The position numbers were made by a program, and so were the translations under genes. This document shows positions 10,921-64,000 of a DNA stretch of 64,000 nt, piece by piece. Where the stretch lies: NCBI GenBank assembly GCA_035221665.1, contig CM069139.1, positions 56,544,001 through 56,608,000 of the forward strand. The letters run 5' to 3'. Every line of letters begins with the position of its first letter. The stretch's first letter is position 1. The DNA is from Okamejei kenojei. Its lineage: Eukaryota. The notes beneath the pieces were generated by a model. It did no database searches and had not been told where the DNA came from. It saw nothing but the letters and a program-made list of their open reading frames with translations.

Positions 10921-10962
<42 letters not shown>

Positions 10963-11671: not shown

Positions 11672-11703
<32 letters not shown>

Positions 11704-14324: not shown

Positions 14325-14740
14325 TATAATCAATACTAAAGGAAGTATAGAAGGATACTTTGAAAAAAATTTAAAGGGAAAAAAAAAAAAAAAAAAAAAA
14401 AAATACAGGAAAAAATTAGATCAAGTCAGTGCGGATTTATTCAAAGGGAAATGATGTTTGATAATTGTTTGAGTTTTTTTGAGGTTGTAAATAGCAGAAA
14501 AGGCAAGTGGGAATCAGAGAGGTCTCAATGGGCCCCATCAAGAGCCCTGTCTGTCCATTTCCTTCTGCAGATGCTGCCTGATCTGTGATTAGCAGTTTGT
14601 TTATTGCTGAAGGTTGAAGTATCGTTAGTCTGTTGTGTCTTTAGATAAGTGGAAATGCCTGTCATCAATGTAAATGGGCTTTCATTAGGTTTTTTTAGAT
14701 ATGGTACACACAACAGTATAGTACACAAAATAAGGAGTAT
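14325..14740 (+). mobile_element. Continuation of old CR1 (RT region)
   Basis: IRSSQCGF..KGK.CL...SFFEVVNSR is similar to IGQSQHGFTKGKSCLTNLVEFFEDVTSS in the intact CR1 at about 42.9 kb. Confidence 0.65.
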
Positions 14741-15907
14741 TATTACCCATATCACACATCTGAGGTATGCTTTTACAAAATTGTATTCCCTTCGTTTTTA
14801 CTGCCAGCAGGGTTTTTAAAAAAAAAACAGGGAATATTTTCTTGTATTCCCGTTCTTGCGAACACCTATGACTTTACCTTAAAACAGCGGGGAAAATATT
14901 CTATATACCCAGGTCTCACATCCGGGAACTTGGCAACGGACGGCCAGAACGCTGCGTGGAAATTTATAATATGTCAACGCAGACGGAAGACTGCCGCTCC
15001 ATTTTGGTTAGAATTTTTACGGGAAGTCGCCGAGCTGAAGAGTTCAAATTTTCCTCTAGATGGTCTGATATGGGTACTAATAACAATATTGACATACCTC
15101 ATTTCGGAGATACGACATACTAAAGCCCTCACTAAACCATATTGGCCCACGTCACGACTTCCGGGCAATATGAATCTACTTCAGGCAATATATGACGTAT
15201 CCCCCTCACGCCGTCAATATTCTATTATTATTTCCCCATATCACCATCTGATGTTTATGCTTTTACGAAATTGTAATCCCTTCCTTTTTTACTGCATCAC
15301 GCTAACAGGGGAATATTTCTTATATCCCCTTTCTAAAGCGAACGACTAAGACATTACTCTGTTTAAAAAACAGCGGGAAAATAGATCTAAGTCCCCTGGT
15401 CTCACATCAGGAACTTGGCAACGTGACGCTGCGTGACGGCAACGTGAACGCTGCGTGACGGCAACAGACGCTGCGTGGCGAAATTAAAAATTTATTCTCA
15501 AACAACAAAATGGCAGCCGGTTGCGAGAAGAGGATCGCGATTTAAAAGTTCGCCCTTCACATTGTCCCATAAAAGAATTACATAAATTACTAATGAAACA
15601 AAAATGTTACATTCTTTAGTCCCCTTATTTACAATGTAGAATGGTTTTAGTAACCCTTATTTACAATGTTGGCCATGCATATGCCAAATGTATAGATACA
15701 TTTCATATCATATGATATGTTCAGATTTTCCTCTAGATGTCTGATAATGGTTATAATAACAATATTGACAGTATCTTTCGGAGATACTACATACATTGCC
15801 CCTCACTAGACCATATAGCCGCACGACATCGACTCGGGCAATATGAATCTACTTCAGGCAATATATGTCGTATCCCCCTCAAGGCCAGTCCCCAATATTC
15901 TATAATC
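14740..15907. mobile_element. Unclassified tandem-dimer insertion (possibly Crypton-like), absent from the duplicate copy
   Basis: Two related units (about 14740-15230 and 15226-15907) each start CCCATATCAC..ATCTGA and end TATCCCCCTCA..CAATATTCTAT; the homologous site at about 21225-21245 lacks them. Confidence 0.55.
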
Positions 15908-16081
15908 AGCCATCTTGGCAATCATTGGGAATGGACAGCAACAAAGAGAGTAGGCCAAAAGACCATAAGATCAGAATTAGACCCATTTTGCTGAATCAAT
16001 TCAAGACCGAAATTATGGATTTGTAGATATTATAAGTAAAGGGGGGGGGGGGGGGGGGCGGGGGTGTGAGGCACTCGGGGG

Positions 16082-16581
16082 NNNNNNNNNNNNNNNNNNN
16101 NNNNNNNNNNNNNNNNNNNNNNNNNNNNNNNNNNNNNNNNNNNNNNNNNNNNNNNNNNNNNNNNNNNNNNNNNNNNNNNNNNNNNNNNNNNNNNNNNNNN
16201 NNNNNNNNNNNNNNNNNNNNNNNNNNNNNNNNNNNNNNNNNNNNNNNNNNNNNNNNNNNNNNNNNNNNNNNNNNNNNNNNNNNNNNNNNNNNNNNNNNNN
16301 NNNNNNNNNNNNNNNNNNNNNNNNNNNNNNNNNNNNNNNNNNNNNNNNNNNNNNNNNNNNNNNNNNNNNNNNNNNNNNNNNNNNNNNNNNNNNNNNNNNN
16401 NNNNNNNNNNNNNNNNNNNNNNNNNNNNNNNNNNNNNNNNNNNNNNNNNNNNNNNNNNNNNNNNNNNNNNNNNNNNNNNNNNNNNNNNNNNNNNNNNNNN
16501 NNNNNNNNNNNNNNNNNNNNNNNNNNNNNNNNNNNNNNNNNNNNNNNNNNNNNNNNNNNNNNNNNNNNNNNNNNNNNNNNN
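16082..16581. other. Assembly gap (500 N)
   Basis: Run of exactly 500 N, i.e. a scaffolding gap of arbitrary size. Confidence 1.
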
Positions 16582-16597
16582 CATAGAGAGATAGTTA

Positions 16598-17113
16598 TTT
16601 GGTTTGGCATGGGCAGTTGGGCCAAAACACTGTTTTCCATGCTCCGTATGCTCCATGTTTGATTATATTCGCAGAGGCCCCTTGAATACATTGTAGTAAA
16701 GTCAAGTAAAGATATACACAAGTAAATTAGAAGCACGTATGAACAGTGGCACTAAACTAATCCATGAGAGAACTTTTAAACAACATTCAGGACTGAGAAA
16801 CCAAATTAGCTGCAAATGGTGTGGAGGATGAATTCATGGAGTGTGGAAGAGATGGTTTTCCCCCGATCATTGTGTTTGAAGAACCAAATTGGTAAAATAA
16901 AATGATTTAATTAATAATCCTGGGTATTTAAGGGAGCCTTAGGGAAGAGTTATCCCATAACATAAACGTGAATTAAAATGTATATAAAGATTGAATGTAA
17001 TTTTAGTTCGGTTTCTGTTCTCAAACCAAGTCAAAATCTTAAATAAGGCAAAATTATTAATGCATGAAGGCATAAGTAAGCTGTGGTACATTCAGATGCA
17101 GATAGGGGGGGCA

Positions 17114-17162
<49 letters not shown>

Positions 17163-20100
17163 GGGGGGAGGAGTCGAAAACCAGATGCAAGAAAACGCTG
17201 AAGATTTTAAACATAATTAAATAATTTTCGGTAGCAATTTAACATGATTTACAGAAAATCGCACTCCATCTCATAAATTTGAGATGAATTATTTCTCCCA
17301 GATTTTTAATAACAAAGTGTTCACCAAAATGGACAGTTTTAAAAAAAATCAAACCACTCTGCAAAGTGCAGCTGCGGAGACGTCACAATGCCCATGCTCG
17401 CGTGCGGCAACCGCCAACCCCCCTCCCCCCCCCCGCTCTCGATTCAAAGCAGAAGCTCTCAACCGCGCAGCGTGCACTTTCCAAACCACCTCCCCCCCCC
17501 CCCCCCTACCCCCCACCCACCCGCCCCACATCAGTCATTCTTTCTGGCCCTCCTAGCTGTGCTGCGGACCAAAAAATCCAGAGGGAGTAATGCCGCCAGG
17601 GCCACCTTCTCAATCGTGGTGCCCCACTAGCAACAATAACAGCTCTGCCCCCCGGCTTCTCCTCTACCACCAAGCCCCCCCCCTCCCTCCTCAACGCTCC
17701 GTCCCTCCTCCCTCCCCTTCTTCCTCTCTACACCACGCGTCACAGGGGACCATCTCCTCTCCGTTTCCGGCCATGGCCCGAACGTCTGCAACGCTGGCGG
17801 AAGCCACGATCACAGCTGTCTGTCCACTGCTTTTTGGCAGCTCAGCAAAGAGCTCTATCCTCTCCTCTCATCTCTCTATTCCTTCCTCCCCCTTTGCTCT
17901 CAGATCGCTCCGTGCCTCGCTTCAGAGGTCCCCCAGCGACTCTGCCGCCCCCGCTGCACTCTCTCTGTCCCTCTCACTCCCCGCCCTCGACCCCATCCCC
18001 TCCCCTCACTCACCCTCGTTCTCCCCTCTCTCCTCAACTCACGATCACACCCCCCCCCTCTCTGCCCACACCGACCCCAAGCCCTCAACAACCTCCCCCT
18101 CCCCCCCCCCACCCCTCCTTCTCCCCCTCTCCCTTCCCCCCGACCCTCTTCTCTCCACTCCCCTCCCATCTCATCTCTCCCCATCACCTATGCTCCCTCT
18201 CCTCCTCCCACTCCCTCATCCTCCCTTCCAGTCTCTGCCATCTCTCTCCTCCCCAATCTCCCATCTGTGCCCATCACTCTCAAACCCCCCCCCCCCTCCC
18301 CACCCACCCCCCCCCCCTAACCCCCTCCTCCCTCACTAGAACACCGCCTGCGATTATGGGTAAAAAGGACAAATTAAAAATATTAATATAATATCAAGGG
18401 GGGTTAGTTAGTGTGTGTGTGTGTGTGTGGGTGTTAGTGTGTGGTGATCCGCCGCAAATCCGCCCCGCAAACACCAGGCGTTGGGGACCTGCACTTGGTC
18501 TAGTATCTATTAAAACTGTGTGTGGTGTGGTGTGCGTGTTTTTTTGCATGTGAGACCTATCCCTCGAAAACCAGCCTAAACGGCAAAAATGTTTTACCAT
18601 ATTTATATCAGTAGCGATTTTCCTTGTGATTTTAGAAATCCACTCCTCTGTACATTTGGAACATTATTTTCCCGACATTTTTAATTAAAATTGTTAATCA
18701 AACTGACCTTTTTTTAAAAATCTGACCGCTGCCCAGCTGCTGACATTACAATAACAGTGAGATTTTTACATCTTCTGGTAAAAAAATTTCTTATGCTCAA
18801 AAATCCAATCCTCTATATATTTGGTCCATTATTTCCCGAGATATTTACTAAAATTTATCACCAAACTTAAAAAATATTAAGATTGCCCAGCTGCTAACCA
18901 CACAATGCCTTTCCTCGTGCCCCCCGCAGCTTTGGGTGAATGCAGCTGCTGTCGACGCACATGCGCAGGTTTCCACCATGTATGTTAGCCCACATTCACC
19001 CACCCCCCACCCCCGTATCCTTCAAAAGGAGCAGAAAAGATCGAGAAAGTTTCTGGCAAACAAAGATTCTACAGCTCAGCTCTCCGGGGAAGCCACGATC
19101 ATCTGTCCCCCCCCTGGCCCGGCCTGGCCTCCTGGGTCACGTTGCGGAAGCCCACGATCGGTATTGGTACCTTCCCGCTGCTTTTCCACAGCCATCACCG
19201 TCCTCAGATCGCTCTGTGCCCATCACCTTGGGGCTGCCTGCCCCGCCCATCTCTCCTCCATACCCCCCTCTCTCTTCTCCCCCCCCCCCCCTCTCTCTCT
19301 CTCTCCCCCCTTTCCCCCCTATCTTCCCCCCACCTCTCCACTTTCCTCCTTGCCCCCCTCTCTCCCCATCCCCCCCATCAATCCATCCCTCCACTCATAG
19401 CACTCCTCATCTCTAATCCCTCCCTCCCCACCACACCCATCTCTCCTCTATCCCATCCCTGACTACTACTCCTCCTCCATCCCCTCCCCCCTCCTCTCTC
19501 CTCCAGACCGTTATATATACTATACCATAGATTAAAAAGGTTGGGTAGTTAGCGTGTGTGCGGGGGGGGGGAGGGGCGGGTAGTTAGAGTGGTGTGGGAT
19601 GGTTAATGTGCGTGATGCCGCATGCCGCCCAACTCCCCCCCGTAAACACAAAATAACGAGCGGGGGAACAGACCCAATGGTCTGCACTATGATCTAAGTA
19701 ACAGTTAAAAGTAATGATCAGTGTTTGTGTGTGGTGTGTGTGTTAGTGTGTTCATAACGCCCGATAAAAAAAACGAAAGCTCTGAAACAATCTCTGACGG
19801 TAAAAATGTTTACATATTCCTATAAGTTTTATCCCGTGAAGTAAAAAATCGGCTTATACCTGAAATTTCAAAAATGTTCAAAAATTTCAAAAAACTTAGA
19901 AAATAAATGAGCTGATGACGTCAATGGATCTGCTCATCCCACCCCGGCTGCGTAACATTTTCACGCGCAGTCCCCCTTGCCCCCAGACTTTGCCAGTCAT
20001 TGGTCGCTGCCTGCCCCCCTCTCGAAGTCGACTAACTCGCAACTCGCGGCCCGTCCGCACCCGCCTGTAAGACAGCCGCCCACCCCCCCCCCCGGCTCTG

Positions 20101-21400
20101 GATTATGAAGCCACTGAACACCCAGTAATTTGGTTGACGTGCGTGCACCGCTGACACGCTCCCATTCCTCACTCCACCCCTCGCTTGCTTTTCAGACTGT
20201 GCGGCACACGCTGCAATAAGAACGACAAGTCGGGAACCCTGTACTATAGCTTCTCCGCCTCCCCCCCCCGGACTCTCTCTCAACGATCCCCGTGTCCTCT
20301 TCCTCCTCCCCCCCGGGCTCGCCTCTCCTCCCTCTGGGCTCTCCCGCCCCTAGGGCCTCTCGTCTACACCACCCCCCCCGGCCCTCTCTCTCCCTCACGG
20401 CTCTCTTCCCCCCCCTCCGGGTTCCTCTACCCCCCCCTCCGGGCTCTCTTCCCCCCCCCCCCCCGGGCTCCCCCTACCCTGGCCCCCCCCCCCCCCGGCC
20501 TCTCACAACCCCCCGACCCTCTCATTCCCTCCCTGGTGCTCTCTTTCCCACCCGACCCCTCACCCCCCACAAATTAAGTACCCCTGGCCTCTCCCCCCAC
20601 AGGACCTCTCTCTCCACCCTCTCCACTCTCTCCCTCCCCTCCTCTCCTCTCCCTAGCCCCCCACGCCTCTCTCGTCCCCATCATTTTCTTCCCTTACTCC
20701 CCCGGCATCCCTCTTCCTCCCCCCTCCCTCCCCCGCCAATCTTTCCTCTTCCCCCGCACCTCTAATCTCTCCCCCCCACTCTCCCTCCCACACTCCCTTT
20801 CCCCCACCCCCACCCACACGGGTCCCCCCTGGTCTAGTATAATCAATTACTAAGGAAGTATAGCAGGATACTTATTGAAAGATAAATGAAAAATAGAATT
20901 AGATCAAAGACAGTGCGATTTAATCAAAGGGAAATGATGTTTGACAATTGTTTGAGTTTTTTTGAGGTTGTAAATAGCAGAAAAGGCAAGTGGGAATCAG
21001 AGAGGTCTCAATGGGCCCCAACACGAGCCCTGTTCTGTCCATTTCTTCTGCAAGTTGCTAGCCTGATCTGTGATTAGCAATTGTTTATTTTGCTGAAGGA
21101 TGTAGTAGATCGTTAGTCTGTTGTGTCTTTAGATAAGTGGAAATGCCTGTCATCAATGTAAAGGGCTTTCATTAGGTTTTCGATATGGTACACACAAACA
21201 AAACAGTAAATTACCAACAAGATAAGGATAAATCTTCCCATCTTGGGCCAGATCATTGGGAAATGGACAGCAAAAAGAGAGTGATGTAAAGTAGGCCAAA
21301 AGACCATAAGATCAAATTAGACCATTTGCTGAATCATTTCAAACTTGAAATTATTGATTTGTAATATTATAAGTATAAAGGGGGGGGGGGGAGGGGGGGG
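16598..21400 (+). repeat. Second, error-rich copy of 9215-16081 (probable haplotype/false duplication)
   Basis: Collinear with the segment left of the gap (e.g. GGCCAAAACACTGTTT at both starts, TATTATAAGTA+polyG at both ends); most differences are 1-nt indels. Confidence 0.85.
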
Positions 21401-22224
21401 GGGGGGGAGGGGGGTATGTGTGGGGGGGGGGGGGAGAGGGGGGGGGTGGGGGGGGGGGTAGTACATATTGGATAAACAGACCAAAAAACAAGGCACTCAA
21501 ATCTAGACACCACAAAAACAGGAAAGGACTAGAAAATATGGCAATACTTTTAAACATTGATAAATAAATAAAAATTATTTTTCGAACTCTGCTCATGATT
21601 GTTTCCCATAAAAACGGAAAACGGACGCTCAACCTCGGTTAGCAACAGCAGATTTTTGGTGTCCACTAAAACCAAAATACCATAATAAAGTAGGTCGCGC
21701 AATAAAAACGATGGTAAACTGTACTAACAAAATTTGGATTTGTGTCCACAACAGCCCTCTTATTAATTCTAAACTGCCAGTACAATTTCCCGACTAAGCA
21801 TCTGACTTAAATCTCCAGAGTTCCTTTTGCCACCATAAATTGAAAAAACCAAACTCCGTTGACTCATTACTCATTTAAATCTCCCCTGGATGGTACTTTT
21901 GTTATTTTTTAAATCATGGTACATGAAACCCTTTCCTTTTCGTTCATGTTCACACTCATGCTCTCATTTGAAAAGTAGACCTGTCTCATAATGAAAATGG
22001 TAATATCTTAGCATGGAATGTAATAATCAAGTGAAACAGGTTAAAGCCTATTAGCAGCAGGGAGCATACACTATATGAGATCCCTTCACATTTCCTATGC
22101 AGCTGGAGTTTCTAATCGCATCGTGAAGTAGTTCCTTAGCACAGTGGAGGGATGTTGTTCAAGCAACAGCAAGGCTAGTTCCTCTGCTTTGATGCTCACC
22201 GCAGAAGTAAGTAAAACCACTTAC

Positions 22225-32578: not shown

Positions 32579-32821
32579 GGTCTATTTTGTGGTCCTGCTG
32601 TGGGTCCACAGCCACCTCTTCACCTGGCAAACCAGGTGGGAGAGACGGTTTAGTCGCCGACTATCCGACCAATGGTGCAGGTAGCACGGGATTACATGGT
32701 ACCCGTGGCGGGGGGAACGCCCTCTGACCTGACCCTGACATTATCGGTCACATAACACCAGATGAATACTGATTGCATTCTGCCGTCATGCTTAAAGTGG
32801 CAGTAAAGTGATATTCACTGA

Positions 32822-34090
32822 TGTGGCGCGGCGATAAGCCCGAAATGAAGGCGAGGAGCCAGGTATTTCGGGAAGGACTTTTATTAGGTGTTGTTCTCTT
32901 GTCCAGTCGGGTCTGCAAGAGAGAGATCGCGCCTAAGGCCAAGTCCTCCTTAGGCGCAGTTCGGATGCCCAGCACGACCCACAGCAGCTCGTTCATCCAG
33001 TCCGGGCCGGAGAGTCGCGCCTTCAGCGCTGCCTTGAGCTGCCGGTGGAACCTCTCCACCAGGCCATTTGCCTGCGGGTGATAGGCCGTGGTGTGGTGCA
33101 GCCGCACACCCAACAGGTGAACCATGGCCGACCACAGCTCAAAGGTGAATTGTGGCCCCCGGTCCGAGGATATGTCCACCGGCACCCCAAAGCGAGCAGC
33201 CAGTGCGCGTACAACGCACGAGCACACGTAGCTGTTGAAGTATCGGCCAGCGGTATGGCCTCCAGCCACCGCATGAAGCGGTCCACCATCGTGAGGAGGT
33301 GGGTGATGCCCCGGGACGGCGGGAGAGGCCCCCACAATGTCCACGTGGAGATGGTCGAAACGCCGGCGTGGTAGACCAAACTCCTGGAGGGGCACCCGGA
33401 TGTGGCGTCTGGCACGGAATGTTGGTGCGGGCCCAGTGGCCAACCTGCTTGCGCAGACCGTGCCACGTGAACCGAGCAGCTACAAGTGCCATCGTCGCCC
33501 TGATGGATGGGTGAGCCAGCCCGTGGATCACGTCGAAAACCCTCCGGCGCCAGGCGGCAGGGACGATGGGGCGCAGCTGACCGGACGACACATCGCAAAG
33601 TATTGTTGCTCCTCCAGGGCCGAGAGGGACATCCTCCAGGCGAAGGCCGGAGATGGCAATTCGGTAGGCGGGCATCTCACTGCCCGTGAGCTGTGCTTCT
33701 GCCAGGGCAGAATAGTCAATGCCGGGCGCCACCTCGAAAACGGCGTAGACGGTGGTCGGGACAACGCGTCAGCCACCCGGTTCTCTTTCCTCTCGATGTA
33801 GCGGATGGAGGTGGTGTATTCCGAGATGTACGCCAACTGCCGCTGCACCCGTGCGGACCAGGAATCGGAAACATTTGCCAGGGCGAATGTGAGCAGCTTG
33901 TGGTTGGTGTAGGCGGTGAATGGGGGGCCCTCCAGGAAGTAGCGGAAGTGGCGCAGGAGCTCGCGGTCGAATGCGCTGTACCTTTCTTGGCGTGGTTGAG
34001 GTGCCGGCTGAAGAAGGCCTGGGGTCGCCAACCTCCATCCGTCAGTTGTTCCAGCACGGCACCAACCGCCGAGACCAAGGCATCCACCGT
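32822..34090 (-). mobile_element. Gypsy/Ty3 LTR retrotransposon fragment (RNase H, integrase, LTR end)
   Basis: YSAFDRELL..FTAYTNHK (RNase H); H-H-C-C remnant HGLAHP; LHVDIVG..SDRGPQF..TTAYHPQANGLVERFHRQLK (rve integrase); frameshifted. Confidence 0.92.
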
Positions 34091-34094
34091 AAGG

Positions 34095-34470
34095 GGCTTT
34101 CCCAGCCTCACATGCTGCTTCCTGTCTGTCAGGAAGTTGGTGATCCACGAATGAGAGGTTCAGGCACAGTCAACTCGGAAAGTTTGGAGTGTAGTAGCTC
34201 TGGCGCAATGGTGTTGAATGCAGAGCTAAAATCAACAAACAGGATCCTCGCATAGGTACCCTGGCGGTCTAGGTGCTGGAGGATGAAGTGCCGGCTCAGG
34301 TTGACTGCGTCATCAACAGATCTATTCGCCCAATATGAAAACTGCAGAGGGTCCAGCAGGGGGTTTGTGATATTTTTCTGTGGCCAGCACAAGCCTTTCA
34401 AGGGTCTTCCTGACTACAGTGCGACAGGCCTGTTGTCATTAAGACCAGTAATCCTTGCCTTTTTGGATTA
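34095..34470 (-). mobile_element. Rex/Babar LINE RT fragment
   Basis: [46 protein letters not shown]. Confidence 0.9.
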
Positions 34471-36596
34471 ATCCGGGTCTCTGGCGCAGTAAGACAGAAA
34501 CTCTACCGCTGCACCACTGTGCCACCCTTAATTTATTTGGTTTTCCTTTGGTAATTAAAAACATATAATGCACAAGATGGAATATTGAGTTTGAGCCACA
34601 AGGATGGGATTCTTATGACATTTCCAGCAACCACTGGTGTCACCGAGCCTGAAAAGCTATCCGAAGCAGGTTCATAACTGTGATCACATCCTGAGTTTAA
34701 GCATTACATGACAATTTTTGCCATTTCCACATTCCACAGCTGAAGAATTATGCTTGGTTTTTCAGGATAGCCAGCTGTGGGCTAGATTTACAAGCACAAA
34801 CATAGTGGCCCAAACTTTGTCAGAAAATCAGAGGATGCCAAAAAAAACTTCAAATACGAAGCAAACTTGGATGCGTTGAGTGGATTTTTATTTCTCCCAG
34901 AAGAGCAATTACAACGGATAATTAGCAAAAAACCAACCCAAGAGAAGTTTCTTGGAGAATTTAAAATTCCATCCACGAGTCAGATGTCATTTGGGGAAGT
35001 ACACAGATTCACCATTGCTCTTTTAATTAACAGAAAGATAGCTTCACAGAACTGCAACACTTACAACATTGTTTGGGGCAGATAAGATCATGGTTGATAT
35101 GTTAAATCGCATTCTGTAAATTTCAAAAATAAATCACAGTTATATCTTTCCATAATAATATTCTCACCAGTCTAAACGTCAGAATCATATCTCTTTCTAA
35201 TAATTGATTTCCCTGCCACAGTATTCAGCAAACAGCTAGTTAAATTCAGGAAAATGAATAATTCTATAGAGCTCATTTACTAACTAAGAGCACACCTGAA
35301 TACAGAAATCTCTACAAACTATTGAGTATTCCACATAGTGGGCAGCTCATAACCTACAAAATCAATAATCTTTGAGAAGTGAATCACAATCAAATAATCT
35401 TAATTTTTCAGGTTCAATTAACACCGAAGGTTACTGAGATTTTATGCAAAGACAATAAGTGAGTTCGGATTTCCGCAAAACGCAAGGAATCATTTGTCAA
35501 AGGTCACTCACGATTAACATTCTCGGCAGCAGTGCTGCTGCATATATACAGACCTGCGTTTCAGCCGTAGTCAGTATCGAACCCGGGTGACCCTGGACTG
35601 ACGGGACACCGGCCCGGAGCAGTGGTGGCCTAGGCTTACAGCCAGCATGGAGAAGAAGCTCTAACTCCAGCCCAACTCTGCCTGTCCCGCTGTGTTAACC
35701 GACAGCATCTGGACTGACGGGACACCGGCCCGGAGCAATGGAGTTAGCGCTTCTTCTTTAGCAAAATTGTAAATTGTCGCTGGTGTGTAGGATAGTGTTA
35801 GTGAATGGAGTCAGCGTGGACTCAGTGGGCCGAAGGGCTTGTTTCTGTGCTGAATCACTAAAGTCTAACAAGCAAAATTACAAAATCTAGAGATGTATTA
35901 TTTTGACGTACCACAGAAACGCACAATTGACTACTTTTTCTAGTCAACTGCAGTTTTACTTGCCCGGAAGAAATGGATGATTGGTAAAATTCTAAAGTAT
36001 GGAATGATAAAGATGGATAAACTATAAACTATTTGGTACCCAGATGGTGATTGCAAAATTGAAAAAAAAAAAAATTATTTATCTGATCTCAAACGTGGGT
36101 TTGGAGAAATTGCATTGGACTTCTGGTCCCACCTGTGTTTTGTTGCATTTCAGTTTCCAAGCAACTTTCTGAGAATGGTGACAGCGGCATTAATCACGAA
36201 GCTGTGTATTGCAGAAGGATTAGAATTGATTACATTTGTTTGAGATTTAATGATTTTGAAAAGTATTGTTAATTGGGTAATAATGATTGAGTCTTTAAAA
36301 TGCAAGTACATCCTAATTAGCTGAAAGGTCAATTATTGCAATTAGCTTTATGTTTTTGTGCAATTGGAAAATGCCTAATTCAATGATGGTTTTAAAAATG
36401 AGAGAATATCATAAAGTATTCTTCTTTCCAACGTGAAAGTACATACCAACTCTAGCAATGGAGTGACCCAGCTTTTAACAAGGATCTACTCAAACATTTT
36501 GCAATGCAAAGAGGTAAGGTTCAGAAGAAGGACTACGATCTGAAATGTCACCTACCCAACTTCTCCAGAGATGCTCCAGCACTTTTTTTTGTGGTA

Positions 36597-41675: not shown

Positions 41676-44576
41676 TCAGTATCCCGTACCTGCCTTCTCT
41701 CCATACCCTCTGATCCCCTTAGCCACAAGGGCCACATCCAACTCACTCTTAAAATATAGCCAATGAACTGGCCTCAACTACCCTCTGTGGCAGAGAGTTC
41801 CAGAGACTCACCACTCTCTGTGTGAAGAAAAGTCTTTCTCATCTCGGTCTTAAAGGATTTCCCCCTTTATCCTTAAGCTGTGACCCCTTGTCCTGGACTT
41901 CCCCAACATCGGGAACAATCTTCCTGCATCTAGCCTGTCCAACCCCTTAAGAATTTTGTAAGTTTCTATAAGATCCCCCTCTTAATCTCCTAAATTCCAG
42001 AGAGTATAAACCAAGTCTATCCAGTCTTTCTTCATAAGACAGTCCTGACATCCCAGGAATCAGTCTGGTGAACCTTCTCTGCACTCCCTCTATGGCAATA
42101 ATGTCCTTCCTCAGATTTGGAGACCAAAACTGCACGCAATACTCCAGGTGTGGTCTCACCAAGACCCTGTACAAACTGAAGTAGAACCTCCCTGCTCCTG
42201 TACTCAAATCCTTTTGCTATGAAAGCTAACATACCATTCGCTTTTTTCACTGCCTGCTGCACCTGCATGCCTACTTTCAATGACTGGTGTACCATGACAC
42301 CCAGGTCTCGCTGCATCTCCCTGTTTCCTAATCGGCCACCATTTAAATAATAGTCTGCTTTCCTGTTTTTGCCACCAAAGTGGATAACCTCACATTTATC
42401 CACATTATACTGCATCTGCCAAACATTTGCCCACTCACCCAGCCTATCCAAGTCACCTTGCAGTCTCCTAGCATCCTCCTCACAGCGAACACTGCCCCCC
42501 AGCTTAGTGTCATCCGCAAACTTGGAGATATTGCCTTCAATTCCCTCATCCAGATCATTAATATATATTGTAAATAGCTGGGGTCCCAGCACTGAGCCCT
42601 GCGGTACCCCACTAGTTACTGCCTGCCATTGTGAAAAGGACCCGTTTACTCCTACTCTTTGCTTCCTGTTTGCCAGCCAGTTCTCTATCCACATCAATAC
42701 TGAACCCCTAAATACCGTATGCTTTAAGTTTGTATACTAATCTCTTATGTGGGACCTTGTCGAAAGCCTTCTGGAAGTCCAGATATACCACATCCACTGG
42801 TTCTCCCTTATCCACGCTACTAGTTACATCCTCGAAAAATTCCACAAGATTCGTCAGACATGATTTACCTTTTGTAAATCCATGCTGACTTTGTCCAATG
42901 ATTTCACCACTTTCCAAATGTGCTGCTATCCCATCTTTAATAACTGACTCTAGCAGTTTCCCCACTACCGATGTTAGACTAACTGGTCTGTAATTCCCCG
43001 TTTTCTCTCTCCCTCCCTTCTTAAAAAGAGGGGTTACATTTGCTACCCGCCAATCCTCAGGAACTACTCCAGAATCTAAAGAGTTTTGAAAGATTATCAC
43101 TAATGCATCCACTATTTCCTGAGCTACTTCCTTAAGTACTCTGGGATGCAGCCTATCTGGCCCTGGGGATTTATCGGCCTTTAATCTATTCAATTTACCC
43201 AACACCACTTCCCGACTGACCTGGGATTTCACTCAATTCCTCCTTTGACCCACAGTCCCCTGCTATTTCAGGCAAGATTATTTATGTCTTCCTTAGTGAA
43301 GACGGAACCAAAGTAGTTATTCAATTGGTCCGCCATATCCTTGTTCCCCATGATCAACTCACCTGTTTCTGACTGCAAGGGACCTACATTTGTTTTAACT
43401 AACCTCTTTCTCTTCACATATCTATAAAAACTTTTGCAGTCAGTTTTTATGTTCCCTGCCAGTTTTCTTTCATAATCTATTTTTCCTTTCCTAATTAAGC
43501 CCTTTGTCCTCCTCTGCTGGTCTCTGAATTTCTCCCAGTCCTCTGGTATGCTGCTTTTTCTGGCTACTTTGTACGCATCATCCTTTGCTTTGATACTATC
43601 CCTGATTTCCCTTGTTATCCACGGATGCACTACCTTCCCCGATTTATTCTTTTGCCAAACTGGGATGAACAATTTTTGTAGTTCATCCATGCAATCTTTA
43701 AATGTCTTCCATTGTATATCCACCGTCAACCCTTTTAGAATTAATTGCCAGTCAATCTTGGCCAATTCACGTCTCATACCCTCAAAGTTACCTTTCTTTA
43801 AGTTCAGAACCATTGTTTCTGAATTAACAATGTCACTCTCCATCCTAATGAAGAACTCAACCATATTATGGTCACTCTTGCCCAAGGGGGCACGTACAAC
43901 AAGACGGCTAATTACCCCTTCCTCATTACTCAAAACCCAGTCTAAAATAGCCTGCTCTCTCGTTGGTTCCTCTACATGTTGATTTAGATAACTATCCCGC
44001 ATACATTCCAAAAAATCCTCTTCCTCAGCACCCCTGCCAATTTGATTAACCCAATCTATATGTAGATTGAAGTCACCCATTATAACTGTTTTTGCCTTTG
44101 TCGCACGCATTTCTAATTTCCTGTTTGATACCATCCCCAACTTCTCTGCTACTGTTAGGTGGCCTGTACACAACACCCACCAGCGTTTTCTGCCCCTTAG
44201 TGTTTTGTAGCTCTACCCATACCGATTCCACATCCTCCAAGCTAATGTCCTTCCTTTCCATTGCTTTAATCTCCTCTCTAACCAGCAACGCTACCCCACC
44301 TCCTTTTCCTTTCTCTCTATCCCTTCTGAATATTGAATATCCCTGGATGTTCAGCTCCCAGCCTACGTCACCCTGGAGCCATGTCTCCGTGATCCCAACT
44401 ATATCATAATCATTAATATCTATCTGCACGTTCAACTCGTCCACCTTATTACGAATACTCCTTGCATTGAGACACAAAGCCTTCAGGCTTGTCTTTACAA
44501 CGCATTTACCCCTTATACAATTTTGCTGAAAAGTGGCCCTTTTTGATTTTTTGCCCTGGTTTTGTCTGCCTGCCAC
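41676..44576 (-). pseudogene. CR1 ORF2 (APE endonuclease plus reverse transcriptase), a few frameshifts
   Basis: LNARSIRNK, GITETWL, VVYRPPN, MGDFN, LGKSDHN, KSPGPD, YRPVSLTS, YLDFQKAFD, GVPQGSVLGP, FADDTK; ends KGIRGYGEKAGTGY*. Confidence 0.93.
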
Positions 44577-44663
44577 TTTTACCTTTCACCTTGCTACCTA
44601 ATGCTTCTACCCTCATTTTACACCCTCCTGCCTCTCTGCTCTTGTACCCATCCCCCTGCCACA

Positions 44664-45615
44664 TTAGTTTAAATCCTCCCCGACAGCACTAGCAAACACT
44701 CCCCCAAGAACATTGGTTCCATTCCATTCCAAGTGCAAACCGTCCTGTTTGTACCGGTCCCACCTCCCCCAGAACTGGTCCCAGTGCCCTAAAAATTTGA
44801 ATCCCTCCCCCTTGCACCACTTTTCAAGCCACGTATTCATTTGCATTATCCTCCTATTTCTACTCTGACTGGCCCGTGGTACTGGTAGTAATCCGGAGAT
44901 TACTACCTTTGAGGTCCTACTTTTAAGTTTATCTCCTAGCTCCCTAAATTCACCTTGTAGGACCTCATCCCTTTTTTTTACCTATATCGTTGGTGCCAAC
45001 ATGCACCACGACAAACTGGCTGTTCACCCTCCCCCTCCAGAATGTTCTGCAGCCGTTCAGTGACATCCCTGACCTTTGCACCAGGGAGGCAACATACCAT
45101 CCTGGAGTCTCGTTTGCGGCCGCAGAAACGCCTATCTATTCCCCTGACAATTGAATCCCCTATTACTATTGCCCTTCCCCTCTTTTTTCCCCCCTCATGT
45201 GCTGCAGAGCCACCCATGGTGCCATGAACCTGGCTGCTGCTGCATTCCCCTGATGAGCCATCTCCCTCAACAGTATCCAAAATGGTATACCTGTTTAGGA
45301 GGGAGATGACCGCAGGGGACTCCTGCACTACCTGCCTACTGCTTTGCTGGCTATTGGCCACCCGTTTCCCTTCTTGTCCTCCTACCTTTTGCCTGCGGTG
45401 TGACCAACTCACTGTACGTGCTATCCACGACTTTCTCCGCATCGTGGATGCTCCAGTATGAATCCAGCCGCAGTTTCCAATCGTTCAATGCGATCTGCCA
45501 GGAGCTGCAGCTGGACACACTTCCTGCAAACGTAGTCACCAGGGACACCGACCATCTCCCTGATCTCCCACATGTTGCAGGCTGAACAAACCACGGGGCC
45601 AATCTCTACTGCCAT
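44664..45615 (-). pseudogene. CR1 ORF1 (zinc finger/leucine zipper plus SGNH esterase), frameshifted
   Basis: CSACNMWE..VCRKCVQLQLLADRIERLE; IVIGDSIVRG..CCLPGAKVRDV; YKQDGLHL. Confidence 0.9.
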
Positions 45616-45856: not shown

Positions 45857-46607
45857 GCCTCTGAAAACACAAGCCCCGCGCTAGATTTTTAACCTACCGG
45901 TCGGGTGTCGCTCCTCCCCCTCCTTCACTTCCTCCAACGGCTCCTGTGGGCCTCTGAAAACACAAGCCCCGCGCTAGATTTTAAACCTACCGGTCGGGTG
46001 TCGCTCCTCCCCCTCCTTCACTTCCTCCAACGGCTCCTGTGGGCCTCTGAAAACACAAGCCCCGCGCTAGATTTTAAACCTACCGGTCGGGTGTCGCTCC
46101 TCCCCCTCCTTCACTTCCTCCAACGGCTCCTGTGGGCCTCTGGAAAAACAAGCCCCGCGCTAGATTTTAAACCTACCGGTCGGGTGTCGCTCCTCCCCCT
46201 CCTTCACTTCCACCAACGGCTCCTGTGGGCCTCTGGAAAAAACAAGCCCCGCGCTAGATTTTAAACCTACCGGTCGGGTGTCGCTCCTCCCCCTCCTTCA
46301 CTTCCACCAACGGCTCCTGTGGGCCTCTGAAAACACAAGCCCCGCGCTAGATTTTAAACCTACCGGTCGGGTGTCGCTCCTCCCCCTCCTTCACTTCCTC
46401 CAACGGCTCCTGTGGGCCTCTGAAAACACAAGCCCCGCGCTAGATTTTAAACCTACCGGTCGGGTGTCGCTCCTCCCCCTCCTTCACTTCCTCCAACGGC
46501 TCCTGTGGGCCTCTGGAAAAACAAGCCCCGCGCTAGATTTTAAACCTACCGGTCGGGTGTCGCTCCTCCCCCTCCTTCACTTCCACCAACGGCTCCTGTG
46601 GGCCTCT
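45857..46607 (-). repeat. Eight tandem 93-bp monomers forming the CR1 5' end
   Basis: Unit GCCTCTGAAAACACAAGCCCCGCGCTAGATTTTAAACCTACCGGTCGGGTGTCGCTCCTCCCCCTCCTTCACTTCCTCCAACGGCTCCTGTGG (31-aa periodicity in the ORF track), inside the TSD. Confidence 0.95.
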
Positions 46608-49633: not shown

Positions 49634-50075
49634 CGGACACTCCCCGACCTACGCAATAGGCGACTTATGTAGACTTGCACTTATGTAAGAATTCTGTACT
49701 CAGTCTGTAGTGCAATCAATACAATAAAAAGAAAGTGTAGATGCTAGGTTATACCGAAGATAGACACAATATGCTGGAGTAACTCAGCAGGTCATCCCAA
49801 CTCAGTGTCTATCCAAGTGAAATCAAGGCTGTTTGTAATTTCCACACCACAGTACCATCACTCAATTTTACATCTGGAACAAGCCGCCAATAGTGGTGAT
49901 CCTTACCCAGAAGGCCGCGTGCCGCAGGAAGTGCCTCGGATGCAGGCGGACGCTGCTGAGACGGTTAATACTCTCAGTGAATACACACACAGAGTCGATA
50001 ATTCCGACTTAAGTAAAATCTGACTTGCATTAGGGTTTATGGAACATATCCCTTACATAAGTCGGGGTGTGCCTG
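49634..50075. mobile_element. Tigger/pogo-like MITE
   Basis: Imperfect TIRs TA|CGGACACTCCCCGACCTACG ... CATAAGTCGGGGTGTGCCTG, with repeated CGACTTA subterminal motifs. Confidence 0.65.
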
Positions 50076-50533
50076 TTCTTGATGTAGCTGCTATCAGTGA
50101 ACATTCGATAGGCGGAAATTTTGTTTTCCTCCTCGTTTCTTCCATCCGATGCTAATTCTAATCTACTTTATAAGCTTGTCACCTTCTCAGCCCACTCTCC
50201 TTTTCCAACATTCACAATGCTCACAACATGTGATGAAGTATAAAACCACCCTCAGAGTAGAAATAATACTCTTCTAACTTCCCATAGCGAGTTATATCCA
50301 AAACTGAACTTCGTACAAGTTAACACATTCTGCATTTGGTGTTCGTTTGCCTGCGTAGATTTCTGAAATACACTCTTGCTGCATAACAGTATATATATTT
50401 TTTGAAAAAGTGTCCTCTTCTAGAGTGACATGCTTAAAACACCTGTTTTTCAAGGGTAATGGTTAATCGGTAACAAATTACGATGCATGATATTAATGCT
50501 GCAAGCTGTTTGAGTTATCCCCGCTAACCCAAT

Positions 50534-50581
50534 AGGTCACAGGTTCAGATAAGACCCATTGACCTGTTGACCTGTCAATCA
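50534..50581. promoter_or_regulatory. Candidate enhancer core: two opposed DR2 nuclear-receptor elements plus PBX-MEIS decamer
   Basis: AGGTCA-ca-GGTTCA (50534-50547, +); AGGTCA-ac-AGGTCA (50573-50560, -); TGATTGACAG (50581-50572, -); all in repeat-free sequence. Confidence 0.65.
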
Positions 50582-53227
50582 AATACTTGCTTACAAGATG
50601 CTGCCAATGTAAATAACCACAAGTGACAATTTGCTAATTGCTGGCCTCTGCAAAGCCATGTAACCTTCTGACCTTAAGGGAGACCTCAGTGGCTGGATCA
50701 ATTCCAACCCCAGGCAACAAACCCATACTGATCTACGCAGATAGAAAGTCTTTTTATAACAAGATTAGGGATGCTAAATTTGTACACTCATTGGTAAATA
50801 ATCTTAGCTTTTCAGGTTCAATTAGTATGTTATTGGCTGCAAATACGGTCATTTATTTTAATTTTTCTCATTACATTAAGGCAATCTGAAACAAAATAAA
50901 CAGTGATCAAGATTCCACTTCATAATCACACACAATGTCTGTGAGCCATAATGTCTTGCGAATGACTGTAGTTTGCTCCATTCAAAAGACTACATTTAGT
51001 AACTGAAATGCAAACTAAAATTATCTTAATTCAATAGCTTCAGATTCAGAAATTAATAATTAGTATAATTATATAACCAGTTTCTACAGCTCTTGGGTAA
51101 TATGTTTTTAATGAGGCTGCTGTGATTGAGGCTTGTGAAAATCAAATTATGTTTTTCATTAAAAAGCCTCAATTTTGAAAAGCCTTCATCCATTTAGCAT
51201 TCAGAAGATTTTTTAAAAATTGAACACAGTAGTTTACCTGCAATACCAAGATATCTTCTAATTTTACAAGTCGTTGAAGGTATACCTTCATTTATTTTGA
51301 TCAAACGTATTAAAGTAAATAATCTAATTTGGTATTACTTCATTTTCCATTTGTAAGTGAAATGGATGAAAATGTTCATTTGCACAGAGGCTCAGCGTGT
51401 GAGGCAACATCTATGGAGAGAAGGAATAGGCAACGTTTCGGGTCGAGACACCGCCTATTCCTTCCCTCCATAGATGCTGCCTCACCCGCTGAGTTTCTCC
51501 AGCATTTTTGTCTACCTTCAATTTTTCCAACATCTGCAGTTTTTTCTTAAACATTTGCACAGTGACCGTGAGCTACAGCTGTACAGCGTAGGATTGTCGA
51601 ACTGGAAATTGGCATCCAAATGGGGAAGAGAAAGGGAAGGTGGAGGCAATGGTGGAAGGATAAAAATAATTGAGGTGGAAGATGGCAGGCAGGAAGGATG
51701 GGAGGGAGGATAGACGGGAAAATTAACAGAAACGGAAATTTAAAAAAGTTAATATTGATAACAACAAAAATTACTAAAAACAAAATCTCTAAAAACAAAA
51801 TGACTATCTCAAGAAATGGGATCTTCGTTGAGTTTAGAAAATGAAACTAGAGAGGGATGGTTTTGTGAGGCTGTTTCTATATACAATTCTTCATCACCTA
51901 ACAATGAACAGCTGTGACTAGAACTTGGGAATAAGTGAAATCTCCAACATATTCAAGAAAATGTAATGAAAAATTTTGGAGAACTCAAATGCTCAGTTAA
52001 AAGCAGAAACTCAGGAGTTAAAAGAAGCTGAGTGAACAATGCTTCCATCCAATGAAAAAACTGTGACTTCAAAAATAATTCTAAGGACTAAAGTGTTAAC
52101 AGTTTTTTAATAAGTTATGACAAATTAGAAGTAATCAAGTTTAATTTAGAAAATTATATCTCTGCAATTTTCTATTTCAATTAATTTCTACTTTTTGAAG
52201 ACGTTGTCTTTTTAGTTTGGTTTCAGAGATAACAGGCCCCTCTGCCCACCTATTCCACGCCAACCAGCGATTACGTACACTTGTTCTGTCCTGCACACTA
52301 TGGACAATTTACAGAGGCCGATTAACCTGAAAACCTGCACGTCTTTAGGATATGGGAGGAAACTAGAATACATGGAGAAAGTATATGACTCTAAATCAGA
52401 TTATGCTATACATAAATCAGATTATGCTTATACATAAATCCAATCATGCCAAACTCAAGTGCAATAGATAGGAAAGAAAACGTGGATGGCTCAAAGCTAT
52501 GTTTAGTTGCAGGCAAATATTGCAATGTATGGAAAATATAAATATGACAAAAATAAAGTTTTTACAGTCACTAGCTACAACGTCATTCCAAACAGCTCCG
52601 AGCGATGGGGAATTATATATAAATATTAATCTTTAAAACATTCAAGAAAGATACTTTTTTGCATGCTGCAACGAGAATAGCTTAATATTCAATATTGAAA
52701 TAAGAAACTGAAGATGCTGCTTCATCAAGGAATGATACACAATGCAAGGAGTAACTCAGCGGTCAGGCAGCATCCCTGGAGAGCATGGTGACATTTTGAT
52801 TCAGGAAAGGGTCCTGACTCGCTGAAGTCACCTCAACATTTTGTGTATTCCCAGCTTAATATCCATTTATGTGATGTTGAAGAATTTTACCAAGAAGAAT
52901 AAGGAGAAATCAGATACTTTCAACAAAATAAAAGCTGTTTTATTGTGTCCTGTGAAGTCAGCTTTCGATAAAGTTTCATTTTAAACTTTAATTGTTATTT
53001 TAATTATTATCTATTGTTGTTTTAAAGTTCAAAAGAAATGTTGTGTCATTGATGTTAGGATTTTTCTCCAACTGTGCATTCTTGTAGAAATGGTTGCAAT
53101 GCCGGTTACTGGCGGTACCTGTATGATTCGCTGTTCTACTATGCCTCAAATTCATTTATTTTTATTTGCCTCCTTGCCGGAAAAAGGTGGTTGAAATAAA
53201 GAGCAGAGAGCATTCTTCGCCTAAGAA

Positions 53228-54790: not shown

Positions 54791-55019
54791 TTGATTATTG
54801 AGGGTCATCTATTTTTAAAAAAAGAGATTTATGCAAGGAAAAGAGGGCTGATTTAAAAAAAACATTTAAACTTTGGAACTGTTTGGAAAAGTCGTCATCC
54901 ATCAAAGATTGCAGTTGTTGGACACACAGACATTGATTATAAAGGTCCACAGATAACCGTGAAAGAGCCCTTCAATTGAAAATAATACTTCAGCTACTTT
55001 AGAAATCAAAAAATCAAAA

Positions 55020-57918
55020 AGATTTGTGCAATTTTATTTGTATCCATCCAAAACGACAATGGACACCAACACAATCACTGAGTTTCTGGATAATTGCAAT
55101 CTTCCCAAACTAGAATTGCAGGAACAAGAGGATTTGAGAGCACAAATCTCAAATAAGGAAATAGAAGAAACAATATTCTCATTAAAAAATGGAAAAACAC
55201 CAGGTCCCGACGGATTTAGTAATGAATTCTATAAAAGTTTTAACGATATATTTAGCCCTCGTCTACAGAAAATGTACACACACGCTTTCAGAGAACAAAT
55301 ATTACCTGATACACTAGCAGAATCTACGATTACATTAATACTTAGGAAAGATAAAGATGAGGAAGAACCTGGATCCTATAGAGCTATCGCGTTGTTAAAT
55401 ACAGATCAAAAAATATTAGCAAAAATATTAGCAAGAAGATTAAGTAAGTACGCCATTAAACTAATACATCCGGATCAAACGTGGTTTATCCCTAAGGGAG
55501 ATTCATTTAATAATTTGAGACGTCTGCTTAATATAATGCACTCACACCAAACTAAAGATCCAAATCTCGCAATTATTTCGCTGGATGCAGAGAAAGCATT
55601 CGATCAGGTTGAATGGAAGTATATGGTGAAGGTATTGCAAAAATTTCAACTGGAAGAGAATTTCATTCAATGGATTAAATTAATATATAATAAGCCAACA
55701 GCCAGAATATTAACTAATAATATTTTATCCACAAAATTTCAACTGTCAAGGGGTAATAGACAAGGTTGTTCATTATCACCATTGTTATTTGCCCTCATAA
55801 TTGAACCACTAGCGGAAATAATTAGAAATCATCCGAATATCCAGGGATATAAGACAAAATATTCAACAATAAAATATAATTATACGCTGGTGATGTACTT
55901 TTGTACATCACAAAGCCTCATATCACTATACCCAATATTTTAAATTTAATTGAGGATTTAGGTTCTTTTCAGGTTAAAGAATAAACTGGAATAAAAGTGA
56001 AATCATGTCAATAAAACCGAAAGATTCTACACATCTCGTAGAATTTCCTTTTAAAATAGCTGGGGAAAAATTTAAATACTTGGGCATTAAAATTACTAGA
56101 AGATATCATGACATGTTTAAAGCAAACTAAAACCCTGTACTTAAGAAATTACATAATTTAATTAAATTCTGGAAAACGCTCTTGATGTCTTTAATAGGTC
56201 GAATAAACACCATAAAAATGATTTTTCTACCACAAATTCTATACTTGTTCCAATCAATTCCACTATATATACCCAAAACATTTTTTTTTTTAAATGGACT
56301 CAGATATTACAAATTTTATTTGGGATTGTAAGATCCATAGAATACACAGACCACACCTGAATAAACCCAAAGTAGTAGGGGGATTAGCACTCCCTAATTT
56401 TATGTATTATTATTGGTTGGTAAATATTAGAAATATGATTCAATTGTTGGATAATGCTCTTCATCAACCGGAATGGATCATTATGGAGAAAGAGGACTGC
56501 TCCCCCTTTAATATTGGTGCGATCCTTCTTTCACCAATGACGGTGAATAATACAAACTACAACAAAAACCCAATTATGCATAGTACAATCAGAATTTGGA
56601 AACAAATAAAATACAATTAAAAATTAAGAAACTTATCTCTCCTATCTCCTGTTGCTAAAAACCCTCTGTTTAAACCCTCAATTATAGACAAAGCATTTAT
56701 ACAATGGGAAAGAGCAGGAATTAAAACTTTTGGAGATTTGTATGATACGGGAAAACTATTATCATTTAAACAATTACAACTAAAATACAATCTGGGTAAC
56801 AATCAGTATTTTAAATATTTCCAAATATGTGATTATTTGAAAAAACATGCACATAAATTTCACAAAATGCCATTAGACTTACTAGATGAAGTAATGAGTA
56901 CAAAGGCGGAATCACCAAATTTAATCTCACATATATATAATATTATACTAAATGCAGTAATACCAACAACGGAAGGTATTAGAGGTCAGTGGGAAAACAA
57001 ACTAAGCATAAAAATTTCCAATGAAAGGTGGAAAGAATACTTATTAAATGTGCACAAATGCTCAATTAACGTAAGACACATTTTAATACAAATTAAAATT
57101 ATACATAGATTATACTACTCAAAAACTAAATTAAATAAATTTTTCCCTAACGTTTCACCAATTTGTGATAAATGCCACTGTCAAGAAGCTACTATAGCGC
57201 ACTCATTCATATTTTGTACAACAATTCAAAGGTTTTGGATTGAAATCTTTGGAATTTTCACAAAAGTGTTTAAAATAAAAATGACACCAAAGCCAGAATG
57301 GACTATTTTCGGAATGACCGAAGGTAGTCCAGAATTAAATGCCTATCAAAATAATTTATTTGATTACGGCTTAATAATAGGAAAAAAATTAATCTTAAAA
57401 TTCTGGAAAAATGCTCCTATACCAACGTTAAATATGTGGATTTCAACTATGTTTGAAACACTACATCTGGAAGATATGAGACTCTGCCTGGAAGGAAAAT
57501 CAGAACGCTTCTATCAGACGTGGTCTGCATTTATAGAACTGCTACAAAGATAAGGTGCAAGAGTACCTCGGGCCTTGGTAGGGGGGATGAAAAACTATCG
57601 AGTTGGTGGATTCCTTTTGCGTGATATATATAACATAGTAACTGGCTTTTTTTTTCCTTTTCCTTTTAAAAATTTTTTTTTAGGGTCTATCTCTTAGCCC
57701 CCTTTCTCTAATTATTTGACCAAGGGTTTCTTCTCCCCGTTGGCACGCTCTTTCACTATCACAACTCTTTTCACCTATTTCACTCTCTTTCTTTCTATTC
57801 TTTTTCTTTAAAAGCCATAAAATTATGGGGTACAATGATTGTAACAATATATATGTGAAGTACATTGATGTATTTACCTCTCATAAATAAAATTAAATAA
57901 ATAAATAAATAAATAAAT
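55020..57918 (+). mobile_element. 5'-truncated L1-clade LINE (ORF2 RT to C-terminal Cys-rich region, 3' UTR, (TAAA)n tail)
   Basis: GKTPGPDGFSNEFYK, SYRAIALLNTDQKILAK, ISLDAEKAFDQVEW, RGNRQGCSLSPLLF, GGLALPNF, CDKC..H.F.FC; a few frameshifts and stops. Confidence 0.93.
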
Positions 57919-62823: not shown

Positions 62824-64000
62824 CAGTGCCCTCAATAATGTTTGGGACAAAGACCCATCATTTATTTATCTGCCTCTGCTCTCCACAATTTGAGATTTGT
62901 AATAGAAAAAAATCACATGTGGTTAAAGTGCACATTGTCAGATTTTAATAAAGGGTCTTTTTATACATTGTGGTATCATCATGCAGAAATTTGGTATCAC
63001 CACAGCAGTGTTTATACATCGTCCCCTCCATTTCAGGGCACCATAATGTTTGGGACACAGCAATGTCATGTAAATGAAAGTAGTGATGTTTCGTATTTTG
63101 TTGCATATCCTTTGCATGCAATTGCTGCTTGAAATCTGCGATTCATGGACAGCACCAGTTGCTGGGAGTCTATTCTGGTGATGCTCTGCCAGGTCTGTAT
63201 TGCAGCCATCTTTAGCTTATGCTTGTTTTGGGGGCTGGTCCCCTTCAGTTTTCTCTTCAGCATATAAAAGGCATGCTCAATTGGGTTCAGATCGGGTGAT
63301 TGATTTGGCCACTCAAGAATTGACAATTTTTTAGCTTTGAAAAACTCCTTTGTTGCTTTAGCAGTATGTTTAGGATCATAAGGTCTGAAGAAGGGTCTCG
63401 ACCCGAAACGTCGCCTATCTCCTTCGCTCCTTAGATGCTGCTGCACCCGCTGAGTTTCTCCAGCTTTTTGTGTACCTTGTTTAGGATCATTGTCTTGCTG
63501 TAGAATGAATCGCAGGCCAATGAGTTTTGAAGCATTTGCTTGAGCTTGAGCAGATAGGATGTGGCTTTGCACTTCAGAATTCATGATGCTACTACCATCA
63601 GCAGTTGTATCATCAATGAAGATAAGTGAGCCAGTACCTTCACCAGCCATACATGCCCACACTTACATCCCCCCCCCCACCGTGTTTCACTGATTAGATG
63701 GTATGCTTTGGATCTTGGGCAGTTCCTTCTCTCCTCCATACTTTGCTATTGCTATCACTCTGCTACAAGTTTATCTTCGTCTCATCTGTCCACAAGACCT
63801 TTTTCTTTTAAGTACTTCTTATACTTAAAAGACCTGTTCTTTTAAGTACTTCTTGGCAAACTAACCTGACCATCCTATTGTTGCAGCTAACCAGTGGTTT
63901 GCATCTTACAATGTAGCCTCTGTAATGAAGTCTTCTGCGGACTGTGGTCATTGAAAAATCCACACCTGACTCCCAAAGAGTGTTTCTAATCTGACGGATC
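62824..64000 (-). mobile_element. Tc1/mariner transposon (same family as 25797-27532), running off the window
   Basis: TA|CAGTGCCCTCAATAATGTTTGGGACAAAGACCC TIR; transposase C-terminus FILQQDNDPK..WPNQSPDLNPIEH..KGYATKY (63066-63662). Confidence 0.93.
63380..63477 (+). mobile_element. Young Penelope pLTR with intact hammerhead-like core, 13-bp TSD
   Basis: TGTTTAGGATCAT at 63367-63379 and 63478-63490; core CTGAAGA-AGGGTCTCGACCC-GAAACGTC. Confidence 0.85.

Follow-up and report, generated by a model that had tools for sequence, protein, structure and literature searches.

A candidate cluster of DR2-type retinoic acid response elements in an intron of DPH6 in a cartilaginous fish

A non-random cluster of DR2-type retinoic acid response elements (RAREs) is found in an intron of DPH6 within the window, the whole 64-kb stretch of DNA that was analysed. 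Judged from its sequence, the cluster is a strong candidate for a RARE-cluster enhancer, and its role is probably developmental. It likely constitutes a functional nuclear-receptor element. Given such an element, the retinoic acid receptor (RAR) would probably be the relevant receptor, and for an element read by RAR, MEIS2 would be the somewhat favoured target. The complete reading, an intronic enhancer built on a DR2 RARE cluster with DPH6 as its host and MEIS2 as its likeliest target, is put forward tentatively.

Architecture of the cluster

The DR2 RARE sequence definition is represented here by two perfect DR2 and two DR2 with one mismatch. The first perfect DR2, AGGTCAcaGGTTCA (AGGTCA ca GGTTCA), occupies 50534-50547 on the plus strand, and the second, AGGTCAacAGGTCA (AGGTCA ac AGGTCA), is an exact 8-bp tandem at 50573-50560 on the minus strand. 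A third half-site in DR2 register (50557-50552, minus strand) extends the latter into a triple half-site array with an 8-bp register (50573-50552, minus strand). This array amounts to two overlapping DR2, i.e. the perfect one and, in a second register, one with a single mismatch (AGGTCA at GGGTCT; 50565-50552, minus strand), with the middle half-site in common. The distal DR2 (AGGTCA ga AGGTTA; 50674-50661, minus strand) also has one mismatch, and its 5' half-site carries an TNAAGGTCA extension of the ERR/NR5A type (whole element 50661-50677, minus strand). The spacers of the four DR2 differ in sequence (CA, AC, AT and GA) while all are 2 bases long, and the half-sites are near consensus. The initial annotation had described a double DR2; both perfect repeats are indeed present and a scan reproduced the coordinates of every motif it quoted, but the third in-register half-site and the distal DR2 had been missed.

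Apart from the two perfect DR2, the 64-kb window contains no perfect RGKTCA direct repeat with a spacing of 0-8. Four of the seven near-perfect DR2 of the window (at most one mismatch) fall within 141 bp, and half-site density peaks at the cluster, with 5 perfect half-sites per 150 bp versus at most 3 elsewhere. The opposed arrays form a 17-nt inverted repeat (76%), and the core is weakly palindromic. Between them lies a WGATAR (GATA) site (50547-50552, plus strand), a common motif with 156 occurrences in the window. A one-mismatch half-site (50530-50525, minus strand) and a CCAAT pentamer (50529-50533, plus strand) abut the plus-strand DR2, and neither is significant alone.

The decamer TGATTGACAG occurs once in the 64-kb window, at 50581-50572 on the minus strand, and overlaps the 5' half-site of the perfect minus-strand DR2 by 2 bases. 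Inside it, on the plus strand, is CTGTCAA (50572-50578), which is taken to be a TGIF site. Another CCAAT pentamer is positioned 22 bp from the decamer (50604-50608, plus strand; chance about 0.14), and its flanks match the NF-Y consensus only in part. The exact TGATTGACAG is the TALE motif DECA, a PBX-PREP/MEIS site (PMC6023610). Further along the plus strand, the forkhead TGTAAATA (50608-50615), RUNX AACCACA (50615-50621) and homeodomain CTAATTG (50634-50640) matches are where the initial annotation had placed them, and a TGACA match also falls within 50608-50640. All four are individually weak. The forkhead, RUNX and CTAATTG motifs have 8, 12 and 10 copies in the window, respectively, with a chance of 2-3% each per 150 bp, and having been selected after the fact they add little. 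The GATA site, the two CCAAT pentamers and the ERR-type extension had been overlooked at first.

Other known arrangements were also sought. The Rev-DR2/RORE pattern for REV-ERB/ROR requires A(C/G)T within the spacer and on the 5' side of the half-sites; no match to this pattern was found, the upstream flanks being CCCAAT and ATTGAC and the spacers CA and AC. The DR8 composite (DR2:DR0) is absent, with no DR0 or DR8 of one mismatch or fewer in 50100-51400. The PBX-HOX/MEIS hindbrain grammar, TGATNNAT near TGACAG, is likewise absent, with no TGATNNAT in 50150-51380.

Chance expectation and genomic setting

The early claim that such clustering is unlikely by chance is borne out by Markov expectation, simulations and permuted half-sites. 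Under Markov orders 0-4, perfect DR2 are expected 0.09-0.20 times per window, two of them within 100 bp 1.4e-5 to 6e-5 times, and the decamer together with any DR1/2/5 pair 5e-8 to 3e-7 times. A genome assumed to be 2.5 Gb in size would then contain 0.5-2.4 DR2 pairs and at most 0.014 triples (DR pair plus decamer) by chance. If the decamer is counted as any of about 100 motifs that could have been flagged, the triple is estimated to rise to the order of one per genome; the third half-site and the distal DR2, the latter with a chance of about 0.014 within 150 bp, lower this post-hoc expectation again. Two perfect DR2 within 100 bp were obtained in 0 of 300 simulated windows, and 20,000 simulated islands yielded 47 with one perfect DR2 and 0 with two. 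Permuted half-sites on the real window gave a perfect DR2 pair within 100 bp in 3 of 719 cases, each time because matches spaced 2-8 bp apart overlapped. Only 1 of the 719 attained four near-perfect repeats within 150 bp, and that one permuted pattern is near-identical, with its only perfect match at the same locus. The exact 8-bp tandem of the minus-strand DR2 is one of 4 such loci in the window, and since tandem duplication raises the expected number of DR2 by only about 0.03 per window, the non-chance conclusion is unchanged.

The gene that hosts the cluster is identified by an exon of 246 nt with AG/GT ends (40463-40218, minus strand), which encodes residues 442-523 in the RidA/L-PSP domain. 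Its identity to diphthine-ammonia ligase (DPH6) is 84% for sawfish, 78-80% for other rays, and 69-78% for sharks and chimaera. These matches establish the DPH6 locus that had been named from the sequence, and the closest ones, to sawfish and ray DPH6 (78-84%), agree with the proposed origin from a cartilaginous fish and identify the animal as a batoid, perhaps a skate. No mammal is among the 25 matches listed for this exon, which fits the loss of the RidA half of DPH6 that mammals are presumed to have undergone. No further DPH6 exon was found in the 64 kb by tblastn with 6 named proteins and a 30-residue tiling scan, an assembly gap of 500 N at 16082-16581 excepted. Since this is the sole DPH6 exon found in the 64 kb, the cluster is placed in an intron of at least 23.5 kb upstream of it, 10,071 bp from the acceptor; the intron on the other side of the exon is at least 40 kb, the gap aside.

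Self-comparison of the window showed the cluster to be within an island (49795-51390) that has no second copy in the 64 kb apart from a 29-bp match, in line with its first description as unique sequence. The 29-bp match (50796-50824 to 35392-35420; 27 identical, E 1e-6) includes a GGTTCA half-site. Wider homology around it was not found, the best local alignment between the two 800-bp regions scoring 55 versus a shuffled maximum of 51 and lying off the diagonal of the match. The island contains no open frame above 83 codons. Two other candidates were rejected, namely an Rfam family (0 matches on the whole window; one chance match in the island, outside the core, E 0.79) and a stable RNA hairpin of the core, which folds no better than shuffles. 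A SINE-like copy (51391-51515), with an internal 103-bp inverted self-match (83%), forms the right edge of the island.

Several mobile-element remains are present elsewhere in the window. A LINE-like element with a reverse-transcriptase frame is located at about 42000-45500 (minus strand), and 8.1 copies of a 93-bp unit, 98% identical, adjoin its 5' part at 45857-46607. A second LINE-like element (54963-57553, plus strand) runs through several frames, with a reverse transcriptase (E 9e-25), and is single-copy in the window. There is a GC-rich LTR-retroelement remnant at 32748-34255 (minus strand), with an integrase-core match below the Pfam cut-off, and a DDE_3 transposase fragment at 63066-63662 (minus strand), which is presumably Tc1/mariner-like. 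At 9900-21500, a GC-rich repeat that includes long tracts rich in C/T recurs in several copies, all of them skewed in one direction. The density of TGACA is highest in the window at 34350-35050 (5 per 450 bp), partly in a single-copy stretch (34533-35391), and this region is a possible second TALE-bound element. A crude scan gave no CTCF site near the cluster and two one-mismatch sites near 13.5 kb, which is uninformative about boundaries.

Counterparts of the cluster were sought in published sequence sets. Six 14-base core strings gave no match in an exact-string search of open-licence literature, and the 9 supplementary files of PMC3261376 that were searched contained none of four of the six. 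On visual inspection, DR2 context accompanied 0 of 15 decamer occurrences in the human CONDOR CNEs (6,693) and 0 of 16 in the zebrafish CONDOR CNE set. Exact-string searches miss diverged or line-wrapped copies, while the CONDOR sets cover only elements shared with pufferfish and their MEIS2 region may not extend to the DPH6 intron; these tests thus bear on mammals and teleosts and say nothing about sharks. Conservation of the sequence to both mammals and teleosts appears mildly disfavoured. Within the open-licence literature, neither a published DPH6-intron enhancer nor a description of the DECA-DR2 overlap or of the cluster itself was found, and the available portions of PMC12420390, PMC10115646 and PMC2831330 contain nothing on this locus.

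The proposed link to MEIS2 and alternative readings

MEIS2 is outside the 64-kb window, so the DPH6-MEIS2 link rests on published data. Human gene order, as assumed here, puts ZNF770, AQR, ACTC1 and GJD2 on the other side of DPH6 and the cluster in the MEIS2-distal half of DPH6; ATPBD4 is taken to be an alias of DPH6. Transposon-poor cores are typical of regulatory blocks such as that around MEIS2, whereas 44% of the window is self-repeated. The proposed neighbourhood of DPH6 and MEIS2 is backed by a mouse TAD, a UCNE cluster and zebrafish synteny. Mouse Dph6 is in the same TAD as a Meis2 RARE (PMC7259794, Table 2). ATPBD4, C15orf41 and MEIS2 make up a cluster of 67 UCNEs (PMC3436827, Table 2); as that table also counts merely adjacent genes, it places no elements inside DPH6. 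The human MEIS2 block comprises about 3.5 Mb and more than 200 CNEs (PMC2781166). On zebrafish chr20, 34 kb separate znf770 from meis2b, and this interval contains two RAR peaks and RA-opened chromatin (PMC8608873). With the human order assumed above, this proximity suggests a block that extends as far as ZNF770 and thereby includes the DPH6 interval. On zebrafish chr17, a strong RAR peak with two summits is reported in a CNE beyond C17H15orf41 (Zv9 chr17:53,856,247-53,857,050; PMC8608873), and RA strengthens the contacts of meis2a with a downstream RAR-bound region (PMC11040003).

The RA responsiveness ascribed to Meis2 agrees with mouse and zebrafish data. Meis2 is an RA target that, jointly with Meis1, is required to form the axis and the forelimb (PMC7259794); zebrafish meis2b is RA-induced and included in the table of RA-regulated genes (PMC8608873). 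The mouse tables of RA-regulated RAREs list none at Dph6 and only Meis2-proximal ones, which lie at or inside the gene (PMC7259794).

In the proposed mechanism, RXR-RAR dimers would occupy the distal DR2 as well as both of the opposed DR2 arrays, and the presence of retinoic acid would exchange corepressor for coactivator on them. RXR takes the upstream position on DR2 (PMC7515732), and RAR-bound regions often hold several RAREs, some with a common half-site (PMC4446430). Chromatin would be primed by a PBX-PREP/MEIS dimer on the decamer, possibly together with NF-Y, and the cluster would contact the MEIS2 promoter within one TAD. Since two bases of the upstream half-site also belong to the decamer, the TALE dimer and RXR-RAR should exclude each other there, the clash falling on the 5' (RXR) half-site of the perfect minus-strand DR2. 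The shifted register one half-site downstream, which starts 6 bp past the decamer, would stay free and could allow co-occupancy. In vivo, the decamer is described as being bound by PBX-PREP, with NF-Y at a distance of about 20 bp; such a site primes chromatin and is rarely an enhancer alone (PMC6023610). A CCAAT is present at 22 bp here, albeit with a chance of about 0.14. This description favours priming over MEIS auto-feedback; the MEIS/PBX feedback of the initial annotation is thus weakened, as it is by the lack of TGATNNAT noted above. The CTGTCAA in the decamer, together with the first isolation of TGIF1 on a retinoid response element (PMC4871493), makes repression possible as well. A more elaborate version, which is improbable, is a register-switch composite in which PBX-PREP/MEIS or TGIF on the decamer would block the perfect DR2 and divert RXR-RAR to the weaker register or the opposed DR2. 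The cluster, in the RidA-half intron, would then be a very distal enhancer of MEIS2 located where the block ends, and its RA threshold would depend on TALE occupancy.

A true RARE enhancer could also serve DPH6 itself or the genes on its other side (ZNF770, AQR, ACTC1, GJD2). The cluster is inside DPH6, mouse Dph6 expression is itself altered in Aldh1a2 knockouts, i.e. on RA loss (PMC7259794), and RA-opened peaks are found 2-3 kb from the zebrafish znf770 promoter (PMC8608873). These targets are nevertheless unlikely, given that znf770 is absent from the zebrafish table that includes meis2b (PMC8608873) and that bystander genes are usually unresponsive to the elements they host (PMC5585340). 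It is likewise unlikely that a functional element is read chiefly by COUP-TF/NR2F, TR2/4, ERR or NR5A, possibly as a silencer with TGIF. DR elements are for the most part recognized by more than one dimer (PMC7406977), and the TNAAGGTCA extension on the distal half-site, the CTGTCAA in the decamer and the origin of TGIF1 (PMC4871493) would suit such a reading; however, the 2-base spacer in all four repeats is the RXR-RAR spacing, and the 5' extension of REV-ERB/ROR, by the criterion given in PMC7406977, is missing.

Neutral sequence, in the form of old repeat remains or local duplications multiplying one half-site, is quite unlikely. It would account for the exact 8-bp tandem, for the inverted repeat formed by the opposed arrays and for the absence of DR2-context counterparts from the CNE sets searched. 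Duplication contributes too few DR2 per window, however, and the spacers vary while the half-sites remain near consensus; the decamer and the distal DR2 would be left unexplained, and there is no second copy in the 64-kb window. That the DPH6 pre-mRNA contains a structured RNA or a hidden exon here is very improbable, as the core, although weakly palindromic, has a folding z-score of -0.74 (45 of 200 shuffles fold as well), no Rfam family at gathering score and no DPH6 similarity.

Significance and comparison with known systems

As a candidate intronic RARE enhancer for MEIS2 in a cartilaginous fish, this densely packed group of DR2 at the distal border of the block provides a compact, mutable test object. 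It could be used to probe the reach of RA input to MEIS2, and to ask whether overlapping sites make TALE factors and RAR competitors or partners. RAREs number in the thousands in vertebrate genomes, and for now the cluster appears to be one good candidate among many.

Site overlap and competition have reportedly been described for TGIF1 on the CRBPII retinoid response element. That element, like the present one, has a TALE homeodomain site on a retinoid element; it is an RXR element at a promoter and is bound by a repressor, whereas the present site is a full PBX-partner decamer that overlaps a DR2 array (PMC4871493). The DECA/NF-Y TALE sites of Ladam 2018 have the exact TGATTGACAG, as is the case here, with a CCAAT about 20 bp away, to which the CCAAT at 22 bp may correspond; on their own, few of those elements drove a reporter (1 of 7), while the decamer here overlaps a DR2 (PMC6023610). 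The meis2 PBX-HOX hindbrain CNEs of Parker 2011 belong to the same regulatory block and also have TALE input. They carry TGATNNAT and are conserved to lamprey, whereas the island here is without TGATNNAT and has no match in the available sets (PMC3261376).

Mouse Meis2 RAREs, i.e. a 5' DR5 and an intron-7 DR2, have the DR2 type in common with the cluster, and Dph6 is in their TAD. These RAREs are single and at or inside Meis2, whereas the cluster is far off in DPH6 and matches none of the sequences listed in the available tables (PMC7259794). The compound RAR/RXR-bound regions of Chatagnon 2015 also have several RAREs in a short region, some sharing half-sites, with an ERR/NR5A-type site nearby. 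In those regions DR2 is mostly paired with DR0 (DR8), whereas here all four repeats are DR2, two arrays are opposed and a TALE decamer overlaps one of them (PMC4446430). The skap1 intron RARE for the zebrafish hoxb cluster is likewise in a bystander intron and is proposed to serve a developmental regulator; it is a DR5 that is conserved to human and reporter-tested, whereas the DR2 cluster is known from its sequence (PMC8608873). By analogy with skap1/hoxb, the DPH6 cluster would most likely act as a compound RARE enhancer hosted by the intron of a bystander gene.
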